In this document: positions 2,739 to 47,322 of the stretch, piece by piece
Layout: each line of letters opens with the position of its first letter
Numbering within the stretch: position 1 is the stretch's first letter
Source of the DNA: a virus
Lineage: Duplodnaviria > Caudoviricetes
DNA: 64,000 nt
Virus record (IMG/VR): IMGVR_UViG_3300020047_008132
Coordinates: 4,325 to 68,324 of that record
Reading direction: 5' to 3' (one strand)
Notes under the pieces: model-generated
The model's database searches: none
What the model was told of the DNA's origin: nothing
The model's input: only the letters and a program-made list of their open reading frames with translations
Position numbers and translations under genes: made by a program

Positions 2739-2879
2739 ATTCAATTTAAACGGATATTATGGCTTATATATACTTATTATAAGCAATGCAAGCCGCCAAT
2801 TAAAAAAGCTGCCATAACCCCACCTCCTCCGCTACACGTGCCCACGCTCACGCTTTTTTGCCCACGCAGCAAGCACTGC

Positions 2880-3722
2880 TTATAACACCAAGTTTGTGCC
2901 ATTTGTAAAAAATTGTTTTATATTTTGCTTCATTTTTAAAACTTTAAAGAAAAAACCCACCGCACTAGAGTAACTAAAAAAGTGTAGTCTGACTTATAAA
3001 GTCACGGTAGCGTTGCTCCTGCTTATCAAAATACTCTTTATCAATTTCAAAGGCGGTAAAGTCCATCTTGTATTTGTGTGCTGAAATACGGTTAGAGCCT
3101 GAGCCTAAATGCGTGTCAATTACTTTCATTCCTTCTTCGGCATAGTTTTTATATATCCAGTCATATAATGCAACCGGCTTTTGTGTAGGGTGTGTTTTCT
3201 TTTCTCCTTGTGGATTATTCAAATATCCAAACCCAATCCAGTCATAGGTGAATCTTCTCAAGATACAATTAAATGAAGTCCACGCAAGTTCACCGTCTGA
3301 AAAGTTTGTATTATTTGCATTCGTTATTTTTTTATCCCAAAAAATCCATCCCTTCTTAGGTGGCAGTAAGTCTGCAAAATAATTACCTCCCCATACAATT
3401 TGATTCTTTGAAACGCGTTGAAGTTCGGCAAAGTATTCATCACTTGGTCGTTCATTATCCCATCCTTTTTTATCATGGTGCTGTTTATTTGAAAAAGTGT
3501 TTGCCTTACCTCCTTTGCCTTTTACGGTGGTATTCCCATCAAAGTTGATTCCGTATGGCGGGTCAACGACAGCCAAGTCGAAATAATTATCAGGAAACTG
3601 TTTCATTCCTTCGACACAATCAGAATTAAATACAATAGAACCCACGCTTTTTTTCTTTAAAGTTTTAAAAATTCATAAGGTCAATTTTTTACAAACGGAC
3701 ACAAACTCTTGCAGCGTTAGCT
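2880..3722 (+). repeat. attC-like site with a gene inside its loop
   Basis: R'' TTATAAC 2880-2886, R' GTTAGCT 3716-3722; arms ~2890-2955 and ~3648-3708 are inverted repeats (AGTTTGTG-CCATTTGTAAAAAATTG; TTTTTAAAACTTTAAAGAAAAAA). Confidence 0.75.
2974..3645 (-). CDS. DNA N4-cytosine/N6-adenine methyltransferase (beta class)
   Basis: DPPY motif, HPTQKP, then DTHLGSGS SAM-binding motif; GTG start. Confidence 0.9.
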   Translation of the reverse strand: MGSIVFNSDCVEGMKQFPDNYFDLAVVDPPYGINFDGNTTVKGKGGKANTFSNKQHHDKKGWDNERPSDEYFAELQRVSKNQIVWGGNYFADLLPPKKGWIFWDKKITNANNTNFSDGELAWTSFNCILRRFTYDWIGFGYLNNPQGEKKTHPTQKPVALYDWIYKNYAEEGMKVIDTHLGSGSNRISAHKYKMDFTAFEIDKEYFDKQEQRYRDFISQTTLF

Positions 3723-4058
3723 GCCATTTGCGGACGACAAAACATATCTCGGCATTGGTTCGCCTTGATGCTGTTCGATACCTTTAAACACCAGCGTTTT
3801 GTTTTCAATAAGCGGACGTATTACTTCGTGCCGTACAAGGCAATCAGCATACATAAACATTCCACGTTCAGGCAAAAACCAAACGCTGTGAAACATCCCC
3901 TGCGGTTTGTAAAATTCATCTTCTAACGATAGTTCGTGTTCAATCGCTTCAATTATTTTACGTTGGCTTAAATCAATTGAATAATCAAATTTTTCTCCAC
4001 CTACGCCTGACGACCTATGTAGGCCATCATTAAATCCGTTTAATAAATTCTTTTCCAT
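3717..4058 (-). CDS. Hypothetical cassette protein
   Basis: ORF fills the cassette; stop TAA lies in the complement of the GTTAG core site. Confidence 0.6.
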   Translation of the reverse strand: MEKNLLNGFNDGLHRSSGVGGEKFDYSIDLSQRKIIEAIEHELSLEDEFYKPQGMFHSVWFLPERGMFMYADCLVRHEVIRPLIENKTLVFKGIEQHQGEPMPRYVLSSANGS

Positions 4059-4121
4059 TTTGTCAAGTTATATGTTTACTTTTTAATCATTTTGTCAAGT
4101 TATAGGCTGACTAAAAACGGC

Positions 4122-4252
4122 AGCTAACAATATATTGGCAAAAGGCGGGCTGACGGTAATTAGAATGAGCATTTGCACTTTTGGCAACATTCCTACATAA
4201 CTCATCAGTAGTGCTATATTTCCCGCCCTTCGCCAATATTTTGCCGTTAGCG
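4122..4252 (+). repeat. attC-like site
   Basis: AGCTAAC...GTTAGCG; stem ATATTGGCAAAAGGCGGG / CCCGCCCTTCGCCAATAT. Confidence 0.85.
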
Positions 4253-4274
4253 GTAATTGCACCCCACCGCACGG

Positions 4275-4667
4275 TTAGAGTTCTTTATGAATTTGTAAAT
4301 AGTCCTCCAATTCGGTTAATGTATTTGCAGGTATATTAAAACCATCACTTTGCAAGTCGGGATTTTCTACCTTCATATTATCAAACATCCATCTCATAGT
4401 TTCTTGGGCGTTTTTTAATAAATTGAATTGCTTTGAAATATCCCTTTCATTTTGGTTTTTAAAAAATGCGTATTCTAAACAAGTTCTTGAGCAATAGTGG
4501 TGCATCCCATTACTTTCAATAATATGGCTATCTGTGCTATCATTTTTTATTTTGCCATTAATTATAATCCACCTAAATGGATGCTCTTTAATATCATTAA
4601 CCTCATAGGTATTTTCGCATTTTTTACCATCTTCAAAACGGTGTCCATCACATTTGTATATTAACAT
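4275..4667 (-). CDS. Hypothetical cassette protein with Cys/His (possible Zn) motifs
   Basis: YKCDG..KCE and HYCSRTC. Confidence 0.55.
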   Translation of the reverse strand: MLIYKCDGHRFEDGKKCENTYEVNDIKEHPFRWIIINGKIKNDSTDSHIIESNGMHHYCSRTCLEYAFFKNQNERDISKQFNLLKNAQETMRWMFDNMKVENPDLQSDGFNIPANTLTELEDYLQIHKEL

Positions 4668-4715
4668 ATTATTTTAGTTTTAAATTGTTTCTAATTCATT
4701 CGCTGTGCAACTAAC

Positions 4716-4772
4716 CGCTAACAGCGTATAAAAGCCATTGAAAAAACGGCTCTTATACGCAAAACGTTATGC
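4716..4772 (+). repeat. Short attC-like site (57 bp)
   Basis: CGCTAAC A GCGTATAAAAGCCA-loop-CGGCTCTTATACGC AAAAC GTTATGC. Confidence 0.85.
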
Positions 4773-5048
4773 GAAACCGCCAACATTCGTATAAGAAAAA
4801 AGCGTTTGTTGATATTCTGCAGAAAGATTTTTTACTTTCTCTAATTCATTCGGCATATTTTTATACAAGCCTTTTTGTCTATTTTGTTCACATTGAAATA
4901 AATATCTCTGAATGCTCCAAAGTTTTAAAAAATCTTTCTTTGGAATATCCCAATTTCTTAAATTGTAAAATCCTTGCAAAGGTTGGTATTCGCATAACAC
5001 AGGTTTTGCAATACCGTGCTTGAATGTTTCAGTTGGACTATTTTTCAT
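4767..5048 (-). CDS. Hypothetical cassette protein starting inside the attC loop
   Basis: ATG at 5048 within attC 4992-5123; stop overlaps GTTAT core at 4766. Confidence 0.55.
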   Translation of the reverse strand: MKNSPTETFKHGIAKPVLCEYQPLQGFYNLRNWDIPKKDFLKLWSIQRYLFQCEQNRQKGLYKNMPNELEKVKNLSAEYQQTLFSYTNVGGFA

Positions 5049-5123
5049 TTTAATAAAGTTTTTTGTTAGTATTTAGTTTCGTTGTCTTTAGGCACGGCAT
5101 CGCAAAGCCTTTTAACGTTATGT
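4992..5123 (+). repeat. attC-like site
   Basis: GCATAAC...GTTATGT; stem GGTTTTGCAATACCGTGC / GCACGGCATCGCAAAGCC. Confidence 0.85.
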
Positions 5124-5170
5124 GCAATTTTCTTTTTCATTTTTTTTCCCACCGCACAATGATTAAATGA

Positions 5171-5995
5171 TTAATCGAAGTTGCATATAGCACAATTTTG
5201 TTTTTCAAAGTTCACTTCCCAATCTTCACGACCAAATGATAAATAAGTTTTAATAAAATCTTCTTCATCTCTGCCCCAGTGCTTTTTTAGTCTGTTGCTT
5301 AAATCAACTGCCCTTTGCCAATATTCAGGGTAATGTATTCGCACCAATTCAAAATCCGACTTCTGCATATTTTTGCATGGTAAGCAGTTGTTATGGGTAA
5401 ATACTCTTTTCCCTGCTTCGTTTCTGATGTCGTAAATTTTCGGATACCAACCTATTTTTTCTTTCACAATTCCAAAACACCATTCATTGTCTTTATCTAT
5501 AATTGGAAATGCTTTGTAATAAATCATGTTTGGTGCATTGACAAACATTCGCTTTTCCCTTCGCCTTTCGTTTCTCACATAGCCCACCAAATCAATTTCA
5601 ATTCGTTTTTCTGCCATGTAATTTACAATCGGAATTACTTTTAATTCCTTTGTGCAAATTGGAATAGCTGCCGGGTGTGGTATCATTTTCATTTTCTCAA
5701 AATGAGCAATGATGCTATTCCAAGTTTCTTTGTAGAAAACGGTTTTGAAATTTTTCTTTGCAAACTCAACCCCTGCCAAAACAAAATCTCTTGTGTCTGG
5801 GCTATGTTCTTCAAAGTGTGCATAGAATAAATGCAACTCCAAAGGCTTTTTTTCTTCTGCTATTTCAGCCAACCAACACAGCACAGCCATTGAGTTTATG
5901 CCACCTGATAAACCAATCATAATTTTCTTATCTGAGAAATCACCTTTCTCAATCATAAGTGCTGCTGTATCTCTTTCAAATAATTCTATCTGCAT
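5171..5995 (-). CDS. PAPS reductase-like (PP-loop) protein
   Basis: IGLSGGINS PP-loop, PICTKELK, GYVRNERRR, C-terminal NCLPC; ATG at 5995 preferred. Confidence 0.75.
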   Translation of the reverse strand: MQIELFERDTAALMIEKGDFSDKKIMIGLSGGINSMAVLCWLAEIAEEKKPLELHLFYAHFEEHSPDTRDFVLAGVEFAKKNFKTVFYKETWNSIIAHFEKMKMIPHPAAIPICTKELKVIPIVNYMAEKRIEIDLVGYVRNERRREKRMFVNAPNMIYYKAFPIIDKDNEWCFGIVKEKIGWYPKIYDIRNEAGKRVFTHNNCLPCKNMQKSDFELVRIHYPEYWQRAVDLSNRLKKHWGRDEEDFIKTYLSFGREDWEVNFEKQNCAICNFD

Positions 5996-6054
5996 ACTTT
6001 TAATGATTAAATTGATTAATTGCCCACGCACAAAAAATGAAAAAGAAAACAGAC

Positions 6055-6186
6055 ACATAACAGCACCTAACCAAAATTGGCGGCTTAGCGGTAAATTGAA
6101 CTGTATTGCTTCGTATCATCATTTGTGCTTGTTTGAAAATTTGTACTTCGTAATCGCCAACTTCGGTTAGCCGCAAAACGTTAATC
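6055..6186 (+). repeat. attC-like site, right end of array 1
   Basis: ACATAAC...GTTAATC; stem CTAACCAAAATTGGCG / CGCCAACTTCGGTTAG. Confidence 0.85.
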
Positions 6187-6646
6187 AAAACCTAATCCAT
6201 GCACCAATACTTGGCGCAAAAGTGAAATGGTTACTCATTGTAAGTTCATACCTGATCGCGATATCCCTGTTTACTTCCTGAATGATACTGCCCCCGAATG
6301 TCATGCCATGACCAACGCGGTCAGATTCATCCGTCGGCATTGAGGTAAGACTGTATCCAATGATTAACCTTGCGGTGATGTCTTTGTCAAGTTCAAAGCT
6401 GTAACCGGTGCGAACCTGGAGCACCTTAGGAGCCGATACTTCCGGCGAAAGCGTGATGATCTGATTGTATTCGAGGAAAGATGGTCCAATGTTCCTGCCA
6501 GCCGTTAAGTTGGCGGAAAGGTATGATGAACTTCCTGGGACGTAGCCCAACGCAAGCGAGGCGTAGCCGTTGTGTTTGTTTATTTGGGCAAAGGAGGCCA
6601 TGGAAAAGATGATCAGCAGTAGGGTGATGATGGTTATGGTTTTCAT
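6185..6646 (-). CDS. Secreted/outer-membrane beta-barrel-like protein
   Basis: Sec signal ending SFA-Q, amphipathic beta pattern, C-terminal aromatic WIRF. Confidence 0.55.
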   Translation of the reverse strand: MKTITIITLLLIIFSMASFAQINKHNGYASLALGYVPGSSSYLSANLTAGRNIGPSFLEYNQIITLSPEVSAPKVLQVRTGYSFELDKDITARLIIGYSLTSMPTDESDRVGHGMTFGGSIIQEVNRDIAIRYELTMSNHFTFAPSIGAWIRF

Positions 6647-6651
6647 TGCGT

Positions 6652-6813
6652 TTAGTTTTTAATGTGAAATTTTGAAAGGATTGATATGACTAATTTTTTG
6701 ATCTGATCAATCTTTGAAACCGGGACACGAAAGGAAATCGTTTTTGTTGGCTCGTTGTACTTGGCTTTCCGGCCTGATGATGCTTGTTTTCCGCCGCGTG
6801 ATTGTTTTTTCAT
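6652..6813 (-). CDS. Small ribbon-helix-helix DNA-binding protein (53 aa, not in track)
   Basis: Manual translation MKKQSRGGKQASSGRKAKYNEPTKTISFRVPVSKIDQIKKLV. Confidence 0.6.
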   Translation of the reverse strand: MKKQSRGGKQASSGRKAKYNEPTKTISFRVPVSKIDQIKKLVISILSKFHIKN

Positions 6814-6989
6814 TATCTTGCTGCGCTTTTTAATGCGTGTTTATGTTCTTTGACATATTCAATCTTTTTAGCATCAGGATATTTTTCTTTCAGCCATTTT
6901 TTTGCTTCGGTAATTCCAAAGGAAAGTTCTGATTTTATTTCGTGATAACTTACCCTACCTGAAAAGGTTAGTTTAAATTTCCGTTTCAT
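6813..6989 (-). CDS. Small hypothetical protein (58 aa, not in track)
   Basis: Manual translation MKRKFKLTFSGRVSYHEIK...; overlapping stop/start with neighbours. Confidence 0.5.
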   Translation of the reverse strand: MKRKFKLTFSGRVSYHEIKSELSFGITEAKKWLKEKYPDAKKIEYVKEHKHALKSAAR

Positions 6990-7339
6990 TGTATGCCGAA
7001 CGGTTTTAAAATGTCCTGAAAAATTGGGTTGAGACTTGACGGTATGTTTTTGCTTTTCAGGTAGTCCTCAAAGGCTTCGTATCTATATTCTGCGTGGTCG
7101 CCAACGATTACGTATTCTTCCCTTGCTGCATCAAACGCTTTTCTTTCTTCCTGTGTCTCAAGATTCATTTCCACTATTTCTGATAGTGTGAAATCTGAAA
7201 TTATTTGCCCGTCCTTTGCTTCATCATCTTTTACTATGCAGCTTACTCTTGTTCCTCTGATTTCGTGAACTTCCAACCATTGACCGTTAAGGTTTTTGTA
7301 GTTGCTTTTGGTTTGAATTTTTGCTTTCATGTTTTGCAT
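6986..7339 (-). CDS. Hypothetical protein
   Basis: ORF in coupled operon. Confidence 0.55.
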   Translation of the reverse strand: MQNMKAKIQTKSNYKNLNGQWLEVHEIRGTRVSCIVKDDEAKDGQIISDFTLSEIVEMNLETQEERKAFDAAREEYVIVGDHAEYRYEAFEDYLKSKNIPSSLNPIFQDILKPFGIQ

Positions 7340-7442
7340 TTTGATTGGTTAAATTATACAACAAAGATGCTACTATAAAACGTATAATCCTGATATTTCA
7401 CCAATTATTTTTATACAATAATTTCAGGATTCTTACTAATCG

Positions 7443-8339
7443 CTATAACGCCGTCCTTAATCCAATAGGAACAACAACATCAGGAACCGGGCGCACCAAA
7501 TGCCCGCATTGATACCCACCGGCATATACCGGGAAGTTGTACTGATCCGTTCCGGCAATAAGCCCATACGGCAGTCCTGTCTTATCATATACGGCAATCT
7601 CTTTTCCGTCAATATCCCCTTTCAAAACAGTTGTAAACTCTGACCGATGTATATACCGCTTCTTGACCATGTGAACACAGAACTCCCGCGAGGTCTTAAT
7701 AAGCGATCCTGAGTATTCAAACCAATTCCAGCCCAGGTCATCAGATACAATTTGCCCATACTGCCGGTTGTACTGATTGATTGAATCGGTTACAATCTGC
7801 TTACTATACTTCAACAGCTTGCCATCCCCTGCATCTGTATTCGTGATAAACTCCCGCATCTGACCTACAAACTTCGTAATGGTCCCGCCGCCGGTTATAT
7901 TCTGCCTGAGTATATCCTGTATTGGCTTTATCACGTTTTCTGTAATACCGCTTTCTGTCAGAGACTCTAATGCTGAATCAATAGACTGTAATTTTATCTC
8001 CTCATAAACTTTTCCGGCTGAAAATTCTGCTTGTAATGAATTAAAATACTTGTTTTGAAGTGCCGAAACGTTGTCGAACTGTTTAATGTACTTTGATACA
8101 TTTTTCAGGTATTCTTTGGAAAGTATGATCTTTCGAAGCTGTGTCTTAATCTTCCCAATGGTGCGGATATTGGCAATGTTATTCTTTATCCGGCCATTGC
8201 TTACCTCGAGGTCTTTTATCAGACCAACCACCTCGGCAAATATCTTATCCTGAATCCCAGGGACGGCTTTAATAAAGTCGTTTACCGAGGATTCGAGTAC
8301 ATAAGTTAGCGCATTTACTATTTTGTCGGTTTCGGTCAT
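7443..8339 (-). CDS. Phage minor head protein (SPP1 gp7/Mu F-like)
   Basis: Directly after portal; SREFC and C-terminal GGYQCGH motif. Confidence 0.75.
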   Translation of the reverse strand: MTETDKIVNALTYVLESSVNDFIKAVPGIQDKIFAEVVGLIKDLEVSNGRIKNNIANIRTIGKIKTQLRKIILSKEYLKNVSKYIKQFDNVSALQNKYFNSLQAEFSAGKVYEEIKLQSIDSALESLTESGITENVIKPIQDILRQNITGGGTITKFVGQMREFITNTDAGDGKLLKYSKQIVTDSINQYNRQYGQIVSDDLGWNWFEYSGSLIKTSREFCVHMVKKRYIHRSEFTTVLKGDIDGKEIAVYDKTGLPYGLIAGTDQYNFPVYAGGYQCGHLVRPVPDVVVPIGLRTAL

Positions 8340-10081
8340 GCAACATCATTCATTACTTCTTGCTTCTCTGAATTAGCCTTAATGATCGCATCAGCATAGC
8401 CGGCAATAGTCTTAGCCTTTTCTTCGTACGACTTAGCCGCAAATTCAGCATCTGCATTCATGGCCATCTTCACAAATGATGCAATGTTGCAGGAAATAAT
8501 GTAATCCTTTTCAGTAATTCCGCCGTTTTGCAGTTGTAACACCTTATCATCCTCAGCAACACCGGCCAATGGATTGAGGATGTAGATATTTACCATGAAA
8601 TCCTTTGTCTTATCATCAGCGTTGAACTTGGCATTTGCGTAGTCAATTTCCAAGGCCGATACGATAGATGGATTCACCTTTGCATTTTTGGCTGAAGTCA
8701 ATTCCTGCAAAATGTAGTTAGATGAAATCAGGTCGAACTTTTGTGGAACCGGTATCTTTGGCAACTGCTTTTCTCGCTTATCTTTATCAACATTCGCGTA
8801 GCGGTAGTCATTGATCATCTTGTAAACACGATCAATCACCCTTACAATATCCTCTGCAATAGTGGCTACAAAGGTATTGAGTGAATCACGGTCCACCTCC
8901 TTCGACACGCCGGATTCAGAAAGCGGCACGTCGGCCAGAAATTCCATGTTGATCGCCGCCAGTCCATCAAAGATATGCGCCTTCACCCTCTTATCCTGAA
9001 TCTCCACGATCTTCGTGTCCTTCGTGACATATCCCACAAATGGGTTAGGCAGTGCCTGCTCTGTGGCTGAATTAGGCCTTAGTGAGATATGCTCGTAAGG
9101 ATTGAATGGTATATATCCGGTTCCCTTGCACGTTTCGCATTGAGATGAAATTATTTGTCCCTCTTTGCCTTTGGTAGTTACCGTTCCGGTTGAATGGCAC
9201 TTCTTACAGTCCTGGTTAGTATATGACCACATCAGCGAGTGAATATGCTGAACAACCTCTGCTTGTAAGTCTGAATATTCCCTTACCGCTTCATCCCATG
9301 AAGGAATACAATTTATAATCCTGGATTCAAAGATGAAATGCCTTTCGTACACTTTAAAGAATTGCGCCCCTATCATAAAGGCCGGAAGATACCCAAGCCC
9401 ATGCTCAAAAGGCTCGCCTGCCATCATTGCGCCTTTTTCATCAATCTGCTCATACCGTGTTATGGACTGCGCCGTAACTGCATAAAGGATAAGTCCATCC
9501 TTCACCTGTCCGCCCTTTGTTTTATAGGTGGAAGTGTTTTGTGAACGCAACACAGCATATTCGCCAGGCATGAAATCCCAAACCTGATCAGAATTGAAAA
9601 CGAAAGGATATGGTTTGTAATAGTCGGCCTCCTCAACAGTCTGCTCCAATGGCATAACTAATATGACGCTGTTCGGATCAACCACGTAGTTTTTTAAAAG
9701 GACATTAAACGCCCAATTTGTAACGCTATTGAAATCCAGCGGGAAGTTCTTTTCGCAATAATCATTAAGCCTTTCACCTTCACGCCCGGAGGTAAGACTT
9801 TTTTCATCATACTTCACATACCACCCTTCAGCCTTGCGTATCTTGCCAAGTTCGGTCAGCACCTTTCCAAATGCGCCTTTCGTCTTTGACTTATAAATAG
9901 CCTCTCTGTATTTCTTGATGGTGTCTGATTCACCGGGCCTGCGTTCCCCAATCAGTGTTTTTGGAAACTCTCCGTCAGAATGAATTTTAATTTCAGCAGC
10001 CATTTTACAAGTTAAAGGGTAGGCCGGATGCCTGTATGGTGATTTGCCTATGTACTTTTCAATCTTAATTTCTTCCATCAT
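8336..10081 (-). CDS. Portal protein with inserted CxxC zinc finger
   Basis: 581 aa, precedes minor head gene; CKKCHSTG..CETCKGTG insert. Confidence 0.65.
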   Translation of the reverse strand: MMEEIKIEKYIGKSPYRHPAYPLTCKMAAEIKIHSDGEFPKTLIGERRPGESDTIKKYREAIYKSKTKGAFGKVLTELGKIRKAEGWYVKYDEKSLTSGREGERLNDYCEKNFPLDFNSVTNWAFNVLLKNYVVDPNSVILVMPLEQTVEEADYYKPYPFVFNSDQVWDFMPGEYAVLRSQNTSTYKTKGGQVKDGLILYAVTAQSITRYEQIDEKGAMMAGEPFEHGLGYLPAFMIGAQFFKVYERHFIFESRIINCIPSWDEAVREYSDLQAEVVQHIHSLMWSYTNQDCKKCHSTGTVTTKGKEGQIISSQCETCKGTGYIPFNPYEHISLRPNSATEQALPNPFVGYVTKDTKIVEIQDKRVKAHIFDGLAAINMEFLADVPLSESGVSKEVDRDSLNTFVATIAEDIVRVIDRVYKMINDYRYANVDKDKREKQLPKIPVPQKFDLISSNYILQELTSAKNAKVNPSIVSALEIDYANAKFNADDKTKDFMVNIYILNPLAGVAEDDKVLQLQNGGITEKDYIISCNIASFVKMAMNADAEFAAKSYEEKAKTIAGYADAIIKANSEKQEVMNDVA

Positions 10082-10944
10082 TATATTTTTTGCCGTTCGG
10101 GTAAGTATTTAATTTTGTCACGCAGTTCAAACGGATGCAAAAGCCCCATTTGCTTAAATACCGATTTTACCCGGTTGTTATAAAACGTCCGCATCCGTGC
10201 CGTAGCAACCTTTCCTCCGGCTGAATACAGGTAGTAGTTATTCCAAATATCGCTGTCCTGGTAGCCATTGCGGGCATTCACATAGGCCCAGAAAGACGGA
10301 CGCCACATATCTTTATGTGGGTAGTTGTCCTGTAATATTGAAGCAACAGAAAAAGCAAACTCATCAGGCATTGAGCCGGCAAACTCACGCGGCGCGATAA
10401 GCGGAGCGTCCCATGTATCCTTTACCAATTCAAAGTAATTGTGGTTTTTATCTGTCTTTTTAAACCATATCACCTCTGTTGAAAGTGAATAGTACCTGCC
10501 TGCCGTAAGCTGATAAGCCTCTTTCAAATCCGATGGCTCCACCCAATACATTGAATTACGCTCGTTCATTCCTGGCAGTTTCTTCCCTGTTGCCATATCA
10601 GCAAAGCCATGGTTGGCAATAGTGAAGTCAACTTGCGACAATTCAGCAAACAATTCAGACGGCTTATTCTTCAGCCAAATAGTATCAGCGTCAATAAATA
10701 ACGTGTCATCAAATGGCGTAAGATCGTAAAGCCTTGTTTTTAGTCGCAAGGCGTGTTCCTGGCCTTCATAGCGTATCATTTCAACTCCATCGAACAAAGT
10801 ATTGCCTTCAAGCGATTTGAGTGCCACAGCGTCATAAATGAGCGCAATAGGCACGTTTTCCGTCGCCTTAATACTTGCGATCAGGTTATAAGCCATCCTG
10901 CCGTAGTACTGATTGCCTGTTGCTATGATTAAAATACCGGTCAT
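10081..10944 (-). CDS. GT-A fold glycosyltransferase
   Basis: LKTRLYDLTPFDDTLFIDAD (DxD) motif. Confidence 0.7.
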   Translation of the reverse strand: MTGILIIATGNQYYGRMAYNLIASIKATENVPIALIYDAVALKSLEGNTLFDGVEMIRYEGQEHALRLKTRLYDLTPFDDTLFIDADTIWLKNKPSELFAELSQVDFTIANHGFADMATGKKLPGMNERNSMYWVEPSDLKEAYQLTAGRYYSLSTEVIWFKKTDKNHNYFELVKDTWDAPLIAPREFAGSMPDEFAFSVASILQDNYPHKDMWRPSFWAYVNARNGYQDSDIWNNYYLYSAGGKVATARMRTFYNNRVKSVFKQMGLLHPFELRDKIKYLPERQKI

Positions 10945-12077: not shown

Positions 12078-12079
12078 TG

Positions 12080-12544
12080 CTATTCTGTTTCAGGTATCAT
12101 GTTCCCGATCAGAGGAACAAGAACGCTTGCGCTGATTGCGCCGCTTTCTATGGCCTGATCTAAAACACTTTGGTTAAATGTGTTAAGCTGAATATCATGC
12201 TCCTCATTTACATACTCCTCTTTGATTTTCTTAGCCGCTTCAATGTCGGTGTACTTATGTACCACTGTCTGACCGGGCAGCAGTTTTGTTTCTTTGGTAA
12301 ATAGAACTTCTTTGCCGTCTTCGGTGACAATGTTTGCAAACTGATCACCGACGTAATTAATCGGATCGCCTTTTTCGTCCTTTTCAAAAAGCATCTTTTG
12401 CGCTTCAGTGAAGTCGCTGTCGGCGTGCTTTACTACCGAATTGATCTTTGATAGGTTACGAGCGATCACAAGAGCCAATGATGTCGGCGTCTTTGCCAGT
12501 TCGTCCAATGCTGCTTTAATCTGTTTTAATTGGTCAATCTTCAT
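12080..12544 (-). CDS. Hypothetical protein (possible fibre chaperone)
   Basis: Follows tail fibre gene. Confidence 0.4.
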   Translation of the reverse strand: MKIDQLKQIKAALDELAKTPTSLALVIARNLSKINSVVKHADSDFTEAQKMLFEKDEKGDPINYVGDQFANIVTEDGKEVLFTKETKLLPGQTVVHKYTDIEAAKKIKEEYVNEEHDIQLNTFNQSVLDQAIESGAISASVLVPLIGNMIPETE

Positions 12545-12566
12545 GATTTATTTATTGGTTTTGGTT

Positions 12567-30644: not shown

Positions 30645-30655
30645 GGGTTTGCGGT

Positions 30656-37528: not shown

Positions 37529-37538
37529 TGTTTTTAAA

Positions 37539-37576: not shown

Positions 37577-37597
37577 TCGTCTTAGAAACTGTGGCTA

Positions 37598-38722: not shown

Positions 38723-38760
38723 GATTATTTTAGTTTAGCGAGTGAAAAGATGCTCCACTG

Positions 38761-39639: not shown

Positions 39640-39707
39640 AATGATGGGTAAAAATAGTTGTTAAACAAATTGTTTGCTATCTAAATAGATTTTATATTTG
39701 TGGTAAA

Positions 39708-39935
39708 TTGCCACTAATGTGTTTATTCTCATTCAAAAAGATCAAGCATACGCCGAACGATATAGAACTTGTTTTTAGTAGCAGGGGTTTTTATTTTGTC
39801 AGAATTAATGGAGTGGCTGTGCAGGATAGTCTTACAAAAGACTTAGGAGAGGCTGAAATCTTCTTTGATGCGTATTGTGATCAAAAGAGAGGCACTCCAT
39901 TCATCCATACTGTAATTAAAAAAGTTACAATATGA
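39708..39935 (+). CDS. Small hypothetical protein
   Basis: Divergent; TATATTTG promoter box just upstream. Confidence 0.45.
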   Translation: MPLMCLFSFKKIKHTPNDIELVFSSRGFYFVRINGVAVQDSLTKDLGEAEIFFDAYCDQKRGTPFIHTVIKKVTI

Positions 39936-40123
39936 TCCAACCCGCCAAAGATTGCCGCCGTCCAGGAATGAAGCTGTGGCCTAAATATGTCCCTGCCGAC
40001 GTTCGGAAAATTGTGATAAGGAAGCAAGCGAAAATGATGGATGAGGCAAGTGGTGTTCGCAGTCAGGAAGCGGCTATTTATGCGATTATCAGGGAATGGG
40101 ATGAAATGAAAAATAAAGTTTAA
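39932..40123 (+). CDS. Small RHH-like regulator
   Basis: KYVPADVRKIVIRKQ..SQEAAIYAIIREW. Confidence 0.45.
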   Translation: MIQPAKDCRRPGMKLWPKYVPADVRKIVIRKQAKMMDEASGVRSQEAAIYAIIREWDEMKNKV

Positions 40124-43077
40124 AGATGCAACCTATACTTTTTAGTAAAAAGAAAGTCAATGTTTGCAAAGTTCTTTTCATCAGGCCGTCTAACGTATAG
40201 ATGTATCTCCCTTGCGGCCAATGGTAATATCTCAATGATGTAATTGATTGCCGTTGAAACTGTGTGAATCGTATTAGCCCGTTCAATAACCTTTGACCAG
40301 TCCAGCAAAGTAAAGCCTGCGACCTCTTTCATAAATACTTTTCGGTCACCACCGGATAAATGAACATTGACTTTGCCGGTACTATTGCTTCGAAAGGTTG
40401 AATTGATCAGATTGTATTTTTCACCGTCCTTTAATCCCAAGACATTATAATACAATTCATCCTCCTTTGCCGTGTCGCGCACCCATGAGCATCCGCGCCA
40501 GCCCTGCCAGTCCTTGCCAAAGTACAGATATTTTGATTTCATGCAGTCAGTAAATGGCAGTTTCAAAATACCATCAGCGAAACGAAGCGGGATAACGGTC
40601 GCGCCGTTTAAGTCATATTCATCCTTTCTTTCGTAGTCAATGGTAAGTATTGACTTATCAATGAATGTTATTTCCGGGAAGTGTTTTCCAATGGCTGCAT
40701 ATTGAGGGACCACCGGCACGATTATCTTATGTCCCTGGGAAATGAATTGTCGTAGTAAAGCAATGATAAACAAATGATCCCCCAACCCAAACGGCTGATT
40801 GATGATTAATACCTCTTGACGTTTTTTGTCTTGACTATTTTTGTCAATAGTTGTAACTTCAACAGGCTTAACAACTTTAGAAACTGTCTGTTTATCCAAC
40901 ATCGTTACCGGCTTCTTTTCCGTCCCATTCAAACAGGTGAACCCATGAAACCCAAACTCATTAGTATAGTATTTCTTTTCCTGGCGTCCATGCCCTTCGA
41001 TACTGAATTTCCGTGCGGCCTCCTCTGAAGCATACCTGATGCCATACTTACGTTCAAGATAACGCCTGTAAGTCCTGCAAATATGGTGATCCTCAGGATG
41101 GGTAAGCCTTATCTGTGGATCCGTCGCTACAATCTCCATTAGTCGCTTTGAACGCAAAGAAAACCCGCCGTTACCGACGTTCATGCCGTCCCTATGCCAC
41201 CATGTCGCGCCAATGTAGTCGAATTGCAAAAATGCGCTATCCCATGCCGCCGGGTTCTTTACATATCCGTCCGACTGGACGATAAGGACAAATTCTGTGT
41301 CAATGTATTTGTATAGCTCCTTTACAATGAAATGGGAATAATCTTCAATTTTATCAAGCGGAGCAATTGGGACACGAAAAACACTCCAGGCATCGCCTAA
41401 TGTTTCTGTGGATGCCGACGTAATGAATTTATGCGCTCCAAACTTTATGCGCATTGTACATTCATTCATTGCGATAACTCCATCTTTAATCTTATCACAG
41501 TTGACCGTCACGAGCGTAACGTTTGGCAGGTGTAGTCTTTTGTCTTCCGGCTCAATAGGTTCGCCTAATGGCTTAATTTCGACCAAATCGGCGAAATTGG
41601 AATTTTCATCTTCAAATTCGTCAAAAATTGTCCCGCTTTGTGCTAATGTATGGGCTTTCAGCAAAAAAGCGTGATCATGCGCCGTGTGCATAGCGGCAAT
41701 AAATTCATCTTTTGAATACGACCGCCCATTCATTCCAATGAAATTATAAATCGGAAATAATGTGTCCGCAATCATCTTTGTATTTTCCTCTAAATCAGGG
41801 AACCAACCTGGATGAAATGCTATGTAAATATTTGGCTTATGCTTCTCCAAATAATCTGACATCTGTGGAAGCAGCAACACCTCCCCGGCCTCAATATCAA
41901 TTTTTATCAGGCACACTTCGCCAATGTCAATATTGTTTTCAGCGATAAAGGATTCAAGTGTCAGCGACTTTACTTTTTCTATTGCAGCATACTTATTAAA
42001 TCTTACAACCATGCTGCTTTCAGAATCCCCAAACTCTCCCTTTGCATTGAGATCAATTTCGCCGTTCACATTCCCAATAGCCAATTTGTGAACTGAAATA
42101 TCAGCCCTATTGATTTTTACATTTTCATCCAATATTTTATGGATTCCTTTATCCGGCTCCGCCGCGTAACACTTTGCTCCAAGTTTTGAAGCGTATAAAG
42201 AAACCGCCCCATTCCATGCCCCGATATCAATAAATACTTTGCCAGGAACAATCTCTTTGTCGAATACATCAAATGTTTCTGGCTCCCATTCATTGCGTGA
42301 TACACGGCCCCACCATTCGAAGTGATTTTTATCTGAGTAATATATTTTCTTACCCCTTACGAAAACATGATCAGCTTCATCCATTACAAAATCATCTGCA
42401 ACGTCCATCGGCTCGTTTCCTGCGCTATGTCCCATACTTGAATTTATACCAATGTGTTGAACAACTGACGGGACGGTGCAAACCGCCCCTCCTGAATTCT
42501 TGCAAGCCTCCGCGTCCCAATTTACGAGTCGTTTCATTCCTTTTTCTAAGGCTGGCAAAATCCATTTTTGGTATTGGTCCCGGTCAAAGCACATATTTAT
42601 TCCGCCAACTGATGACTTGATATTATACCCTTCACCAGCTTCGATTATAGGGTGTCTTTCGGTCCCGTTTGCGTTTTTTGTAAGGCAGTTGAAGCCGGTA
42701 ACTATCTTGTCGGGGAACTTTTCCTTTAGGGATATGATCTTTTCGATGAAATCTGGACGGACGATTGCGTCACTGTCGAGATTCATTACGATGTCGCAGA
42801 CTGGATTATCACCCCTGATTAATGAGGGGTAAAACAAATGTTCAATTCCTTTGTCAAGACAAACACAAACCCCGCTATTCCTATCCCTTGTTATGATTGT
42901 AGCATTCAATAATACTGAAGCGTGATTTAAAATATTCACAGTTTCTTTATCAGTGCTTTTGTCATCAACAAAAACAATTTCCGTCCCTTCAGGAATCCGC
43001 GCCGCCTTCAAACTGTCAAGGCATTGGCGCAAGTAGTCAGCGCGATTGTAACATGGTATTACGATTCCTAATTTCAT
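40120..43077 (-). CDS. Multidomain GT2 - FkbM methyltransferase - DUF5672-like - GT-B-like protein
   Basis: IVIPCYNR..LDSD; DIGAWNG..KIDIEAGE; FDYIGATW..VGNGGFSLRS; QPFGLGD..STAINY. Confidence 0.8.
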   Translation of the reverse strand: MKLGIVIPCYNRADYLRQCLDSLKAARIPEGTEIVFVDDKSTDKETVNILNHASVLLNATIITRDRNSGVCVCLDKGIEHLFYPSLIRGDNPVCDIVMNLDSDAIVRPDFIEKIISLKEKFPDKIVTGFNCLTKNANGTERHPIIEAGEGYNIKSSVGGINMCFDRDQYQKWILPALEKGMKRLVNWDAEACKNSGGAVCTVPSVVQHIGINSSMGHSAGNEPMDVADDFVMDEADHVFVRGKKIYYSDKNHFEWWGRVSRNEWEPETFDVFDKEIVPGKVFIDIGAWNGAVSLYASKLGAKCYAAEPDKGIHKILDENVKINRADISVHKLAIGNVNGEIDLNAKGEFGDSESSMVVRFNKYAAIEKVKSLTLESFIAENNIDIGEVCLIKIDIEAGEVLLLPQMSDYLEKHKPNIYIAFHPGWFPDLEENTKMIADTLFPIYNFIGMNGRSYSKDEFIAAMHTAHDHAFLLKAHTLAQSGTIFDEFEDENSNFADLVEIKPLGEPIEPEDKRLHLPNVTLVTVNCDKIKDGVIAMNECTMRIKFGAHKFITSASTETLGDAWSVFRVPIAPLDKIEDYSHFIVKELYKYIDTEFVLIVQSDGYVKNPAAWDSAFLQFDYIGATWWHRDGMNVGNGGFSLRSKRLMEIVATDPQIRLTHPEDHHICRTYRRYLERKYGIRYASEEAARKFSIEGHGRQEKKYYTNEFGFHGFTCLNGTEKKPVTMLDKQTVSKVVKPVEVTTIDKNSQDKKRQEVLIINQPFGLGDHLFIIALLRQFISQGHKIIVPVVPQYAAIGKHFPEITFIDKSILTIDYERKDEYDLNGATVIPLRFADGILKLPFTDCMKSKYLYFGKDWQGWRGCSWVRDTAKEDELYYNVLGLKDGEKYNLINSTFRSNSTGKVNVHLSGGDRKVFMKEVAGFTLLDWSKVIERANTIHTVSTAINYIIEILPLAAREIHLYVRRPDEKNFANIDFLFTKKYRLHL

Positions 43078-43322
43078 ACAAATGGATTTTCTGTATAAAG
43101 CGAAACGGGGGGCATTCCATTTCCTGCAACCTGTAAATATACTACTCCGGTTTTTGCAATCTCTTCTAAGTCTTCTTTATTAAAAGCCCATTTAGTAATA
43201 ACAACCGGAATTCCTTCGTGGTCTTGCCCCTTAAATGCGCTTACTGACATACATTGCTCATCAGTCATTCCTTCCGGCTTGTTGAATGTAATGTTTGCTT
43301 CTTTAAATTCTATTGGTAGCAT
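43074..43322 (-). CDS. Hypothetical phage protein
   Basis: MLPIEFKEAN..PEGMTDEQC family. Confidence 0.6.
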   Translation of the reverse strand: MLPIEFKEANITFNKPEGMTDEQCMSVSAFKGQDHEGIPVVITKWAFNKEDLEEIAKTGVVYLQVAGNGMPPVSLYTENPFV

Positions 43323-43332
43323 GATTGATATT

Positions 43333-44097
43333 TTAGTAAATTATTTCAATTAACCTTTCCCTTGCCGAATCACTAAACAAATGAAGCCCCAGTTTGTACG
43401 GCTGAAACCCTCCGGCATGATGCAGCACCTTAATCTTCTTTCCAAAAAATACAAGTTCATGATCTATGACCCCTATTGATTTCCAACTATCCCAATGTGA
43501 CTGCTCGCCAAAATCAACCCCTCGTAAAGAGTTTTCTCCGGCTAATACCGAAACACCATAGTGAGTATCGCTATCAATACGATCAATAATTCCCCATCTG
43601 TAATTGTCAACAATGGTGTTCAATACAGACTGCGAGCCAAAAGGAAGCATACCGGCAAACTTCCTGTTTTCAGCAAGCCATTCTGAAATAAACGCTTTCG
43701 AAGTGGTTGCCACGAGTCCGGCATTGACATAAGTGTTTACGTCCTTTCCCGCTTGCGTTATTGGGTCGCTGGTTCCGGCCTTTCCATAGTCGTTATTGTT
43801 GCGCACGCATACCACCTCGTAAATTTCAAGCAGCTTGAAAAGCTCATCCAATGAGCCGGCAATAATACTGTCCGCATCAAAATAGACAACAGCATCAAAG
43901 TCACCTTTAGCCATCGTCCATTCCATTACAAGCGGATGCAGTGATTCAATCGGCATTCCTGCGCCTTCAATGTCCTTTGTGCCATACATAAATAAAGGAA
44001 TATCATAGTGAAAGTATTTGGCTGACGCAATCAGTTTGTCGGCCCCGAAGGAATAGAAATACTTATCAGAGCAGTACGTGCAAAAAGCAATCTTCAT
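43333..44097 (-). CDS. GT-A (GT8-like) glycosyltransferase
   Basis: YFDADS DxD, VNAGLV, QSVLN, LHHAG. Confidence 0.75.
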   Translation of the reverse strand: MKIAFCTYCSDKYFYSFGADKLIASAKYFHYDIPLFMYGTKDIEGAGMPIESLHPLVMEWTMAKGDFDAVVYFDADSIIAGSLDELFKLLEIYEVVCVRNNNDYGKAGTSDPITQAGKDVNTYVNAGLVATTSKAFISEWLAENRKFAGMLPFGSQSVLNTIVDNYRWGIIDRIDSDTHYGVSVLAGENSLRGVDFGEQSHWDSWKSIGVIDHELVFFGKKIKVLHHAGGFQPYKLGLHLFSDSARERLIEIIY

Positions 44098-44477
44098 AGA
44101 ATTTCAATTTTAAATGGTGAAGTGCCTAATATCTCCATGACCAGGTCATAAGCATCCCTGCTTTGCAGTATCGTGTCACGGTCTCGCTGAAGCCCTACCA
44201 ATATGCAGCCGTGAGTATCTTTTGCAGTGTTCCCTGCGTGAATGCGCACCCCTTCAAACCCTGGCACATTGAGCAACAGCGGCATCATTCGTTTAAACCG
44301 ATTTGAGACGTTCACAATGCCGTTATATGTTCCTTTGGGGATGGCAGTTGCGCCAAATACCTTTACAGGCCGCTCCACGTCCTCAAGCGTGTAGCACACA
44401 AATTCGCCGTTGACAAACATTTCCCCGGCTGTACTTTGATCAGTTGACTTTTCGCGGATTACTGTTATTTCTATCAT
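44094..44477 (-). CDS. DUF5675-like putative endolysin
   Basis: YTLED..TAIPKGTY..GVRIHAGN..GCILVG. Confidence 0.75.
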   Translation of the reverse strand: MIEITVIREKSTDQSTAGEMFVNGEFVCYTLEDVERPVKVFGATAIPKGTYNGIVNVSNRFKRMMPLLLNVPGFEGVRIHAGNTAKDTHGCILVGLQRDRDTILQSRDAYDLVMEILGTSPFKIEIL

Positions 44478-44917
44478 GGCAGTTTGTTTTTAAACGGATT
44501 CAATTTACTTGCTAACCAAAAAAGCAACAGCCCAAAGCATAACAAGGCAAATAAAAGCAGTGTAAAGTCAAGTAGCGTCTTGCCCAAACTTTTACGTTCC
44601 TTAATAACCGGATTAACTGTATTAGTCTGCACCATCACCTCTTTGATAATCGTGTCCGTAGCACATTCACCAAACACATGAATTGTATCATTGTACCTTA
44701 CAACCTTAACATGGAGCCGCTCCTTATCCATATAGAACGTATCTATTGACTTGGAAAAGATAAACGTGCTGTCAGCCCTTACGGCCTCAATGATCGTAGT
44801 GTCTGATTTGTAGATGGTATCAATACCAACAAGTTCGGGATTCTTTTTGACCAACCGCCCAAGCCGTTGGGCCGGACTGCATGATTGAAGCAGAAGTAAA
44901 ACGATGATTATTCTCAT
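44474..44917 (-). CDS. Lipoprotein with C-terminal TM (u-spanin-like)
   Basis: LLQSC lipobox, beta-rich middle, C-terminal TM; beside lysin. Confidence 0.6.
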   Translation of the reverse strand: MRIIIVLLLLQSCSPAQRLGRLVKKNPELVGIDTIYKSDTTIIEAVRADSTFIFSKSIDTFYMDKERLHVKVVRYNDTIHVFGECATDTIIKEVMVQTNTVNPVIKERKSLGKTLLDFTLLLFALLCFGLLLFWLASKLNPFKNKLP

Positions 44918-45423
44918 ATTTTTTCAGCAAAAGCGGTGAATGAATTGTAAGCGTCCAATTCGCTTACAAAAATGTTTTTATATTTTCCGGATGCGACAAA
45001 ATAGTCCTTTATCATATCCGGTACAAAAGCGTTTATGTGTTTCCGGTTTGAATAAGGACGCCAATAAAGCTGATTCCAATGCGGGAGGTAAAGAAACATT
45101 ACCCCGCCTGACCGTAAGCAATCCGTCCAGTGGTTAAGGTGCGCAACCCAATCATTGAGATGCTCAAGACAATGCGAACTGAATATCCCATCGGCATAAT
45201 TTAAAGGAAGATTCATTGCATCCCGCAAATCTTCATCCTTACAATTTTTATCAATTCCAATTGCCCCTGGAAATTTCCACTCCTCGCGACCATATCCAAT
45301 GTCGAATATTATACCTTCTTTCAGAACTTCTTTTGCAAATGGAAGGGCAAATCTGGCAGCGTTGCCATCGGCCTGGAATGCCGGATAATTCACGCCTCTA
45401 AAGGTTACTGTTTCTATTGGCAT
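44914..45423 (-). CDS. Class I SAM-dependent methyltransferase
   Basis: FDIGYG, FSSHCLEHL, LRSGGVM. Confidence 0.8.
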   Translation of the reverse strand: MPIETVTFRGVNYPAFQADGNAARFALPFAKEVLKEGIIFDIGYGREEWKFPGAIGIDKNCKDEDLRDAMNLPLNYADGIFSSHCLEHLNDWVAHLNHWTDCLRSGGVMFLYLPHWNQLYWRPYSNRKHINAFVPDMIKDYFVASGKYKNIFVSELDAYNSFTAFAEKI

Positions 45424-45427
45424 TTGA

Positions 45428-45435
45428 CAAAAATA
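45428..45435 (-). promoter_or_regulatory. Bacteroidota -7 promoter element
   Basis: TATTTTTG immediately upstream of the late block. Confidence 0.5.
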
Positions 45436-45453
45436 ACTATTTTTAGTATATTC

Positions 45454-45714
45454 TTATTTCGCTTTGTAGGCAATGTGTCCTTTTAAAAAGGTGTTAATCT
45501 CAACAGTCCCGCCGATCGCTTCGACAATCAATATCAGCGTCTTTACAGTACAATTTCTACCAGCCTCAATGTCAACAATGGTCGCCTGGCGTACTCCGGT
45601 TTTTTCGCAAAGTTCCTTTTGAGTAAGTCCTGACGCCTTACGAAGCGTTTTGATAGCCTCGGCAATTTTCAATCTTGACTTCTTTGGATTTGCTGTATTC
45701 TTATTCTTATTCAT
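45454..45714 (-). CDS. XRE-family HTH regulator
   Basis: LRKASGLTQKELCEKTGVRQATIVDIEAG. Confidence 0.85.
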   Translation of the reverse strand: MNKNKNTANPKKSRLKIAEAIKTLRKASGLTQKELCEKTGVRQATIVDIEAGRNCTVKTLILIVEAIGGTVEINTFLKGHIAYKAK

Positions 45715-45892
45715 TAATTATGGTTATTAGTTCTTTGATCTTGTTGCGCGAAACAAACTTTCTGTCAAGATACCATCCAAGTGTTCCGTTCTTTATTACT
45801 CTTTTCACAGGCTGAAGCCCCTTTTTGAAGACATCCATTCCCTGTAATGTGTATTTTTCATGTCCCCTAATTTGATATTGTTTTTCAGGCAT
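45707..45892 (-). CDS. Hypothetical protein
   Basis: ORF. Confidence 0.5.
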   Translation of the reverse strand: MPEKQYQIRGHEKYTLQGMDVFKKGLQPVKRVIKNGTLGWYLDRKFVSRNKIKELITIINE

Positions 45893-45922
45893 TTGTGATT
45901 TTTTTATTCGTCAAGCCTGGTG

Positions 45923-46450
45923 TTAGTGGCAATAGTTAAGAAACTCCGTCTTACCATTGTAACCTTTCGACATTTGGAGAATACAGGTTTGCACCCTTGC
46001 TCCGTTAAATATGCTTCTTGGTAAGTGAGTAATGCTTACCAATCCAAACTCAATGATATCACTCGTTCTTTTTTGCCCGTTTATCACAGTCAACCAAGGC
46101 ATTAAAGCAATAATGTTATCGCTCATTTCCATACACTCATACAAAATTTTATATCCTTTTGCCATTGGCGTAAATGGTGGGTTCATTACCACCCAATCAA
46201 ATCTCTGTTTTTCCATAGCAAAAAAATCTTGTGGCTCAATTACAGTTCCTTTATGCTTTAATGCCTTTACCAAGTTTCCTAATCCGCTTGTAGGTTCTAA
46301 AATTGTTCCTGCGTTATCAGGCAAAAAAGAACTCATATAGTTGCAAACCTTTTCTGGTGTTTGAAATCCTGCAATACTACTGCCACTAACATCCGCTATA
46401 AGTAATGGCGGGTTCTGTGGTAAATCAATGTTTTTGCTTTCTATTATCAT
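45923..46450 (-). CDS. Small N6-adenine DNA methyltransferase-like protein
   Basis: FQTP, ILEPTSGLG, VMNPPF; start inside attC loop, stop in core site. Confidence 0.8.
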   Translation of the reverse strand: MIIESKNIDLPQNPPLLIADVSGSSIAGFQTPEKVCNYMSSFLPDNAGTILEPTSGLGNLVKALKHKGTVIEPQDFFAMEKQRFDWVVMNPPFTPMAKGYKILYECMEMSDNIIALMPWLTVINGQKRTSDIIEFGLVSITHLPRSIFNGARVQTCILQMSKGYNGKTEFLNYCH

Positions 46451-46512
46451 TTGTGTATAATTCAAAGTGAGTAGTCCTAAATCCGCCACTACTCATAGCG
46501 GAAACGTTATAA
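46384..46512 (+). repeat. attC-like site
   Basis: CACTAAC...GTTATAA; stem CCGCTATAAGTAATGGCGG / CCGCCACTACTCATAGCGG. Confidence 0.85.
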
Positions 46513-47154
46513 GCAAGCTGCTACATTCCTGCTGCGAATGAAAGTTCCCCATTGTTCAGCCATAGCTTTTGCCACCCCTGTGAAAGTTTTTGAGCTTTCC
46601 TTTGCGTTTTTTGCAATCCCCATGTTATAACTTTGTCCACGTTTCTTTCCTCCAGTATTACTCGGCAAATACGGCTTATAGTTGCTCTTAATGTCTGTCG
46701 GCTTTAATAGTGGCAAATTTTTCAACCACAATAAAGTTCGTTTACTGTATTCGTGTCCATACTCGTAGGGCTGTATCGCTTGGCTATGTTTTGGTAATTC
46801 AACTACTTTTAATGGTGTTGGGTTTTCAACTGCAATATATTCAATAGGCGCGTTAAGCAGTTCCAAAAACATAGCTTTCGCTTCCATTGCTTTTTCGTAC
46901 CTATCTTGGCACAAATTACCTGCTGTTGGGTACATCCATCTTGCTCCAGCCCTACTCATATAAGTGCAAGGCGGGTGTGCTATCATCACATCATATTTGC
47001 CACTATAAGCCTCTTTAACTGCATCGCCTACAATATGCCATTCGGGTCTACCTCCACTACATTCTTGTAGGTCGCAACTATAAGCCTCAAATCCTAATTC
47101 TCGGAAAGCTCTGCAAACTTCTTGGCTCTCCTCACAAGCTATTAATATTTTCAT
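46507..47154 (-). CDS. C5-cytosine DNA methyltransferase-like protein
   Basis: ILIACEES, HPPCTY, IAVENP, RSKT-like SKTF; stop in core site. Confidence 0.8.
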   Translation of the reverse strand: MKILIACEESQEVCRAFRELGFEAYSCDLQECSGGRPEWHIVGDAVKEAYSGKYDVMIAHPPCTYMSRAGARWMYPTAGNLCQDRYEKAMEAKAMFLELLNAPIEYIAVENPTPLKVVELPKHSQAIQPYEYGHEYSKRTLLWLKNLPLLKPTDIKSNYKPYLPSNTGGKKRGQSYNMGIAKNAKESSKTFTGVAKAMAEQWGTFIRSRNVAACL

Positions 47155-47191
47155 TTCAATTTAAGTTTCTTTTTAATTAACCGCAGCCAGC

Positions 47192-47322
47192 TTATAACAC
47201 GTGTTTTGTGCAATAGGGGCTGTGGTGGTTTATTCAAGTTTCTGCTTCTAATCAAGGTCTGTGGTAGGTTGAAGGTTTCGTTTCCAAAATCCCCTACTGC
47301 ACAAAGCACCTTAACGTTACCT
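47192..47322 (+). repeat. attC-like site, right end of array 2
   Basis: TTATAAC...GTTACCT; stem GTGTTTTGTGCAATAGGGG / CCCCTACTGCACAAAGCAC. Confidence 0.85.

Follow-up and report, generated by a model that had tools for sequence, protein, structure and literature searches.

How does a tailed phage that carries no integrase come to lie between two arrays of integron-like cassettes, with other viral sequence on either side? The question is raised by a stretch of 64,000 nucleotides (the window; positions 4325-68324 of the virus record IMGVR_UViG_3300020047_008132, which is one linear sequence of 68,324 bp), in which a phage backbone, A (6181-45922), is separated from a left block, L, and a right block, R, by cassette units that we number c1 to c7. 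All coordinates below are window positions, and loci from other assemblies are cited by number (L001 and so on). A preliminary description of this DNA took the 44.5-kb block 2777-47316 to be bounded by crossover points of the attC type, and offered three readings of it: insertion of the phage as one giant cassette by a host integron integrase (IntI), recombination of viruses through shared cassettes, or chimeric assembly. Our analysis favours the last of these, places the second after it and found nothing specific for the first. With a probability of roughly 0.55, the contig is a chimeric assembly path through cassettes common to several phages. Real cassette arrays do stand at both ends of the block, but the unit 2777-47316 itself does not hold.

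Cassette units and their exchange points

The seven units lie between 2777-6180 and 45923-47316 (Table 1). Each opens with TTA, and a long imperfect palindrome closing in ...(C)G forms its other end; the unit ends fall at G|TT, the bar marking the crossover (3716/7, 4246/7, 4766/7, 5117/8, 6180/1, 45922/3, 46506/7 and 47316/7). All seven sites fit the pattern ...TAAC ... (C)G|TTA, and the outer inverted cores of attC type (...AAC / GTT...) are present. Comparison with other assemblies proved 3716/7, 4246/7, 5117/8, 45922/3, 46506/7 and 47316/7 to be exchange points: in assemblies made independently, the flanks of c2, of c6, at c4/c5, at the junction of A with c6 and at that of c7 with R diverge no more than 1-2 bases away from G|TT. 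Because the unit ends are real exchange points across assemblies, the arrays are genuine integron-type cassette rows.

The start of each unit pairs with its own R'' box over 7-9 consecutive bases (9 in c2, counted by hand), as against 3-5 bases with the boxes of other units, the exception to this cognate-only pairing being c1 and c7, which have a common core; such cognate pairing is the trace that a circular intermediate leaves. The core AACGTTA occurs at six loci in the 64 kb, five of them at unit ends. As single strands the sites fold into hairpins closed by TAAC/GTTA cores, with fold z-scores of -4.4 for c2, -5.3 for c3 and -5.4 for c6, and weaker ones (-0.4 to -2.2) for c4, c5, c7 and the c1 leader; beside the core these folds carry a one-sided bulge of 2-5 nt and not the roughly symmetric spacer of canonical sites. 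The cassette genes are all on the minus strand, whereas the sites read R''...R' on the plus strand, an arrangement that departs from the sense orientation of attC cassettes. A unit common to several genomes consists of TTA, an antisense gene, a hairpin and G, and in several units the last three bases are the stop codon TAA. Such cassettes would be excised and inserted by a tyrosine recombinase, supplied in trans, acting at G|TT on the folded hairpins. Motifs of the form CCCAC(C)GC recur beside the cassette genes (2841-2868, 2956-2965, 3641-3647, 4263-4272, 5148-5157 and 6023-6029).

At the outer ends of the two arrays the preliminary description had read the bases correctly: the start sequence TTATAAGCA begins at 2777 after an A (A2776) and not a G, and G47316 is the attC-like R' G of ...AACG|TTACCT. 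The first unit, c1, opens with a gene-less leader hairpin of 100 nt (2777-2886), followed by a long hairpin (arms 2880-2955 and 3649-3722, with 24-nt perfect arms) inside which the methyltransferase gene lies (2974-3645). Both c1 and c7 have the same TTATAAGC core and belong to the same hairpin subfamily; the R'' box of c7 pairs over 8 bases with its own start and equally with that of c1, and the c1 start pairs over 9 bases with its own R''. Because c1 and c7 share their core, the matched attC that arises when 47316 is joined to 2777, and that had been put forward as evidence, is uninformative.

Two cassettes shared by unrelated phages

Copies identical to the 113-amino-acid (aa) protein of c2 occur in 307 blocks of a public collection, with wastewater metagenomes among the sources. 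As many as 243 of the 307 blocks are contigs of less than 2 kb, which suggests that such cassettes usually break assemblies. In the DNA of L017-L026 the match to the window is confined to 3715/6-4252/7, at 94.5-100% identity, and across these loci plus L034 the unit is 88.7-100% identical. The carriers comprise at least six unrelated phage backbones, and their neighbours differ on both sides from the base next to G|TT. The second such unit, c6, is 98.3% identical over exactly 45922-46510 in L028-L032, while in L033 the match runs to 46501; these carriers (L028-L033) have a different phage backbone, with an integrase and a DnaG primase, and their flanks diverge at G|TT. As these alignments show, c2 and c6 are promiscuous cassettes that are exchanged between unrelated phages. 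A methylase cassette of the L024 type, which stands beside c2, was considered as a copy of c1 and rejected, the two being distant homologues only.

A 93%-identical c2 also terminates, as its last unit, a chromosomal contig (L034, 1-600; MTCR01000049.1) from a metagenome-assembled genome (MAG) of Sphingobacteriales bacterium TSM_CSM, with an aldehyde dehydrogenase gene and a GNAT gene beside it, so that a candidate host chromosome harbours these cassettes as well. In this Sphingobacteriales genome a search with TIGR02249 gave only Xer-like matches, the best at 110 bits against a cut-off of 265, and the region of an Xer-like gene (L118), tried as an array locus, was rejected because it is plain chromosomal sequence and holds no array.

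Phage A closes on itself

Nine contigs with DNA from other samples (L006-L014) are 99.0-99.6% identical to the window from the backbone into c5. The parts of A that are covered (about 4123-15019 and 41628-45938) are mostly 97-99.6% identical in contigs from 10 other samples, with the exception of one 374-nt stretch at 90%. In the public collection, 60 blocks contain an identical copy of the 153-aa protein adjoining 6181; a search of IMG/VR for relatives of its gene found none.

The closure of A is seen in L006, a 31.7-kb contig from the Joint Genome Institute (JGI), which leaves the 6181 side, crosses ~4 kb of cassettes other than those of the window, meets the window again at 45926 and continues through the helix-turn-helix (HTH) gene to a 985-aa gene. 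This bears out the proposal that the two arrays merge at a single backbone site, with 45922 joined to 6181 (...CCTGGTG|TTAATC...) between co-oriented genes. The seven-cassette array that circularisation had been expected to yield fared less well: the arrays are one, at a single site, but an array of seven was seen in no relative, none of the joints c7-c1, c7-c2 and c6-c2 was observed, and the cassettes that close A in L006 differ from those of the window.

Its two ends behave differently. On the 6181 side, c5 is present in all nine A contigs that cover its position (L006-L014), c4 and c3 in L007, L008 and L012, and c4 also in L014; the switch to other cassettes falls exactly at 5117/8 in L006, L009, L010 and L013, and at 4246/7 in L007. 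On the 45922 side, L015 matches at 98.8% and has a third cassette variant at 45922/45923, which makes three different first cassettes in three samples. Such a distribution points to an array at one backbone site with a variable, attI-like end at 45922 and a conserved end at 6181 (c5, then c4 and c3), as in an integron. Because c2 comes after c3 in the A relatives L008 and L012, c2-c5 are A's own cassettes. The length of A's own genome is 43-45 kb, and the record is far longer.

Two unlike flanks

Tetranucleotide profiles (strand-symmetric, from independent pieces, compared by their correlation r) divide the contig into three distinct classes, L, A and R. Pieces of A correlate among themselves at 0.79-0.90, the quarters of R at 0.90-0.94 and the two halves of L at 0.85, as against 0.63-0.71 for L with R, 0.63 for L with A and 0.60-0.66 for R with A; the composition steps are sharp and fall at the arrays. 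The backbone beyond the array of an L-type relative, L027, is L-like (r 0.89) and not R-like (0.62), and a Sphingobacteriales chromosomal contig correlates with R at 0.85 and with L at 0.60. Because L and R differ in composition class, no single recipient replicon composed of both is evident, and the profiles support the earlier assignment of the two flanks to different viral blocks.

The same relative informs on the left array end. L-type genes of L027 are 81% identical to 2102-2701, and at the place of 2777 it has GTTATAAGCAAC, with the canonical G where the window has A2776, together with a homologous leader of ~110 nt (77% identical overall in the alignment) and the same GCTTATAACACCAAGTTT arm. 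Because this leader and arm stand next to L-type genes, c1 travels with L, and 2777 is the array end of the L element and not a boundary of A. The placing of the phage start at 2777 had therefore to be given up, the leader 2777-2900 being homologous in a relative of the left flank. Small genes within long hairpins are also found at 1290-2260 of L027, where the outer arms share ATAACACCAAGTTT ... AAACTCTGGATAC with the c1 hairpin 2880-3722 and the enclosed genes differ from that of c1. In L002, which is related to the exonuclease region, three N6_N4 methyltransferase genes follow one another (6800-9450) in the convergent position that the c1 methylase also occupies; they are 26-50% identical to that methylase and probably represent another methylase cassette row. 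The loci L001 (within a complete 51-kb genome with direct terminal repeats), L002 and L027 share only single genes with L and thus say little on whether L and R go together; the R primase and the R lysin are absent from the L001 and L002 records.

On the right, L005, at 100% identity to R, and L004, at 96%, follow the window as far as 47314/47315 and have other cassettes from there on; 47316/7 is the array end of the R element and not specifically an end of A. Searches of IMG/VR found no relatives of the R primase, and relatives of the R 222-aa gene (29-44% identical) share no other gene of L or R. The left joint between A and other sequence is most likely 3716/3717, and the right one is 46506/46507 or 47316/47317.

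These array ends bear directly on the proposal that A inserts 2777-47316 as one cassette into resident attC arrays by means of a host integron integrase, as an integrase-free form of lysogeny. In accordance with the description of the phage as lacking an integrase, a six-frame profile search of the whole 68-kb record gave no match to a tyrosine or serine recombinase domain (PF00589, PF00239). The attI-like 45922 end of A, with its three first cassettes in three samples, would suit such a phage, and the c2-like cassette at the end of the Sphingobacteriales contig indicates that host arrays exist. A precedent is offered by CTX-type phages and by integrative mobile elements exploiting Xer (IMEX), which have no integrase and integrate by the host Xer recombinases (XerCD) through a folded hairpin. 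Against this, 2777 belongs to L: the base before it is A and not the expected G, and its leader is conserved together with L-type genes. One end of the supposed cassette is thus not A's own, and the match between the joined ends is no guide. Moreover, the flanks are viral and mutually unlike and do not form one resident element, the one candidate host genome examined has no canonical IntI (TIGR02249 above cut-off), and the assemblies searched contained neither an empty L-R site, that is, a contig joining L-type to R-type sequence, nor a second integrated copy. We consider insertion of A as a giant cassette very improbable.

The same data speak to the idea that the contig in its entirety represents a single natural phage genome of at least 68 kb with two cassette hot spots, of which the 44.5-kb block would be a conserved module. 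All recognisable genes of the record are indeed phage-like, the flanks encode a primase-helicase, an exonuclease and a GH108 lysin, functions for which no gene was identified in A, and IMG/VR/CheckV rates the 68-kb record as 100% complete and linear. However, A closes at 99% identity without L or R in L006 and possesses its own terminase, portal-like, tail and NinB genes, the sequence falls into three composition classes, and the R boundary has other cassettes elsewhere, and of the readings weighed here we regard this as the least probable. If the record is a composite of three genomes, its rating as 100% complete is an artefact of the complete phage A embedded in it.

A composite path or a real fusion

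None of the inter-block joints was found in any other assembly or collection searched. Exact-protein look-ups for the 142-aa and 356-aa proteins of L, the c1 methylase and the c7 protein returned no copy in any other assembly searched, and pattern searches were negative for the joint of c7 with R and the R end in JGI metagenomes and for the joint of c1 with c2 in IMG/VR.

We propose that three viruses of one community, each with an array, would account for the contig: L with c1, A with c6 ... c2-c5, and c7 with R. The cassettes c2 and c6, units of 530-580 bp, pass almost unaltered between many phages; if copies also stood beside c1 in L and beside c7 in R, an assembler could walk L-c1-c2, once round circular A, and exit by c6-c7-R, the result being a phage apparently 'bounded by attC crossover points'. 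The cassettes c2 and c6 would then each be present in more than one genome of this sample and, as we infer, would have been mis-phased by the assembler. We prefer this composite path because A exists alone in other samples (the closure in L006; L006-L014; L015), because the context changes exactly across the promiscuous c2 and c6, because neither c1 nor c7 was met in any other assembly searched and c1 belongs with L, because L, A and R form three composition classes with steps at the arrays, because the inter-block joints are absent elsewhere, and because the contig has neither integrase nor resolvase. The sequences at the joints, c2 and c6, are present in several different genomes at 98-100% identity, and a molecule of at least 68 kb would exceed the capacity of a capsid sized for a genome of 43-45 kb.

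Several observations weigh against the composite path. The two array halves have no direct repeat in common, and hence a single shared repeat cannot give the path and two shared cassettes, suitably arranged, are needed. The contig is unbroken through seven cassettes of a kind that fragment other assemblies, which fits a sample with one context per cassette, that is, a real molecule. In addition, one G|TT exchange between the c1 site and the c6 site (L-c1-c7-R with circular A, ...c6-c2-c3-c4-c5...) gives the contig exactly, and c1 and c7 agree in their core and in their hairpin subfamily, which might be expected of array neighbours.

A real cointegrate or hybrid would explain these features, a G|TT exchange at the c1 and c6 sites having fused circular A into the array of another viral replicon; the recombinase would come in trans from the host or a co-infecting phage, and later resolution at other sites would move cassette blocks. 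Every joint is an exact G|TT crossover without duplication, the whole layout follows from one exchange, and to the unbroken contig and the common core and hairpin family of c1 and c7 can be added that cassette exchange between unrelated phages at such sites is demonstrated (c2 and c6), and that Qi et al. (2023; PMC9892861), in their assay with IntI1, obtained cointegrates from phage attC sites. On the other hand, the composition gap between L and R is as large as that of either from A, so that the recipient itself would need to be a recent hybrid; the joints are seen nowhere else in the searched assemblies, and the contig has no recombinase gene. The product would probably be too long for A's capsid, and an intermediate that is rare within the cell would not be expected to dominate an assembly. 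We therefore hold such a cointegrate to be doubtful, though it is the strongest competitor of the composite path, and that a trans-catalysed exchange between G|TT hairpins fused the whole 43-45 kb tailed-phage genome into another virus's array, as a real molecule, can be entertained only tentatively.

The solid part of these results is that these phages carry genuine, actively exchanged integron-like cassettes, with the array of A at one attI-like site. Such cassettes are inter-genomic repeats able to fuse unrelated viral genomes in assemblies and to inflate 'complete' genomes in catalogues. If, instead, the fusion were true, cassette sites would mediate whole-genome cointegration between phages, a new route to mosaicism and possibly to integrase-free lysogeny, and the arrays would be docking sites for genome fusion or backbone recombination among Bacteroidota phages, beyond swaps of single genes.

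Gene content of the window

The features of the window are collected in Table 1. The record has no direct terminal repeat, and a terminal-repeat or circular contig was rejected; within the window no Rfam family was matched and no tRNA was found. The R gene nearest the array encodes a 63-aa lipoprotein, and the TTA of the core serves as its stop codon. Further into R, iteron-like AAAACTTAC repeats with 9-nt spacing form two groups 58 nt apart (48381-48595), accompanied by perfect inverted arms of 20 nt. This cluster, situated past the 222-aa gene and ~1.3 kb downstream from the gene of the primase-helicase, is the probable replication origin of block R. Between 47000 and 56000 the GC skew is positive despite the minus-strand genes, the coding strand being C-rich, and is opposite to that of block A and of 56-64 kb.

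Table 1. Blocks, cassette units and genes of the 64-kb window (window positions).
Feature	Position	Strand	Content
Block L, left flank	1-2776	+	continues 4324 b upstream to contig start
Block L genes			HNH endonuclease; exonuclease 1015-2085; tail-anchored 142-aa protein 2310-2738
Block L upstream of window (4.3 kb)			Laminin_G_3 protein; GDSL lipase
c1	2777-3716	-	leader hairpin and hairpin enclosing N6_N4 DNA methyltransferase gene
c2	3717-4246	-	113-aa gene 3717-4058; hairpin 4119-4252
c3	4247-4766	-	130 aa
c4	4767-5117	-	93 aa
c5	5118-6180	-	295 aa, HUP-like
Phage A backbone	6181-45922	-	39.7 kb
A genes			TerS 23889-24344; TerL 22556-23905; portal-like 8336-10081; tape-measure-like 17367-19469
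A genes, further			virion proteins; NinB; HTH 45454-45714; glycosyl/methyl-transferase 40120-43077
c6	45923-46506	-	N6 DNA methyltransferase, 188 aa
c7	46507-47316	-	215-aa gene 46507-47154; hairpin 47190-47322
Block R, right flank	47317-64000	-	iteron-like region, primase-helicase, ParB-like, GH108 lysin
R genes			primase-helicase 49933-52566; ParB-like 56252-57550; GH108 lysin 59481-60119

Comparison with known systems

Akin to chimeric contigs caused by repeats (CheckV 'longer than expected'), the contig has its joints at sequences present in multiple genomes, shows composition steps, contains a complete circular genome inside foreign sequence and is ~1.5 times as long as a related complete genome. 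It differs from them in that no duplicated repeat flanks the embedded genome and in that the joints are crossover points to the base; a real recombinant would look alike. With CTX-type phages and IMEX the window has in common an integrase-less phage whose integrated-form ends would lie at hairpin sites of a host tyrosine recombinase. Those phages, however, are small filamentous ones with single-stranded DNA that insert at chromosomal dif, whereas the genome considered here is that of a tailed phage, is 40 kb long and has viral sequence on both sides, and its integration is hypothetical.

Classical integrons (IntI, attI, attC) likewise consist of units bounded by G|TT, in which the start pairs with its own R'' and the palindromes differ between units, and the variable proximal end (45922) and conserved distal end (c5) of phage A correspond to theirs. 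In contrast to them, the 68-kb record has no intI gene, no Pc/attI platform was identified in it, and the gene orientation is reversed.

Integrase-less cassette arrays in phages are already described. Clusters of attC sites lacking integron-integrases (CALINs) have been reported from virulent and temperate phages (Qi, Rajabal, Ghaly, Tetu and Gillings, 2023, Front Microbiol; PMC9892861), the cases including the Bacteroidota phage Polaribacter P12002L, another from activated sludge, and DNA methyltransferases as cargo. Our arrays resemble these in being integrase-less cassette rows in phage genomes, in their crossover of the G|TTRRRY type and in their methyltransferase cargo. They differ in that the genes run antisense to the sites, each being preceded by its hairpin, while the TAA stop makes up the last three bases of the unit, in that the internal loop is strongly asymmetric and one gene lies inside its hairpin, in that no IntI was found in the one candidate host genome examined, and in that identical cassettes are found in many unrelated phages.

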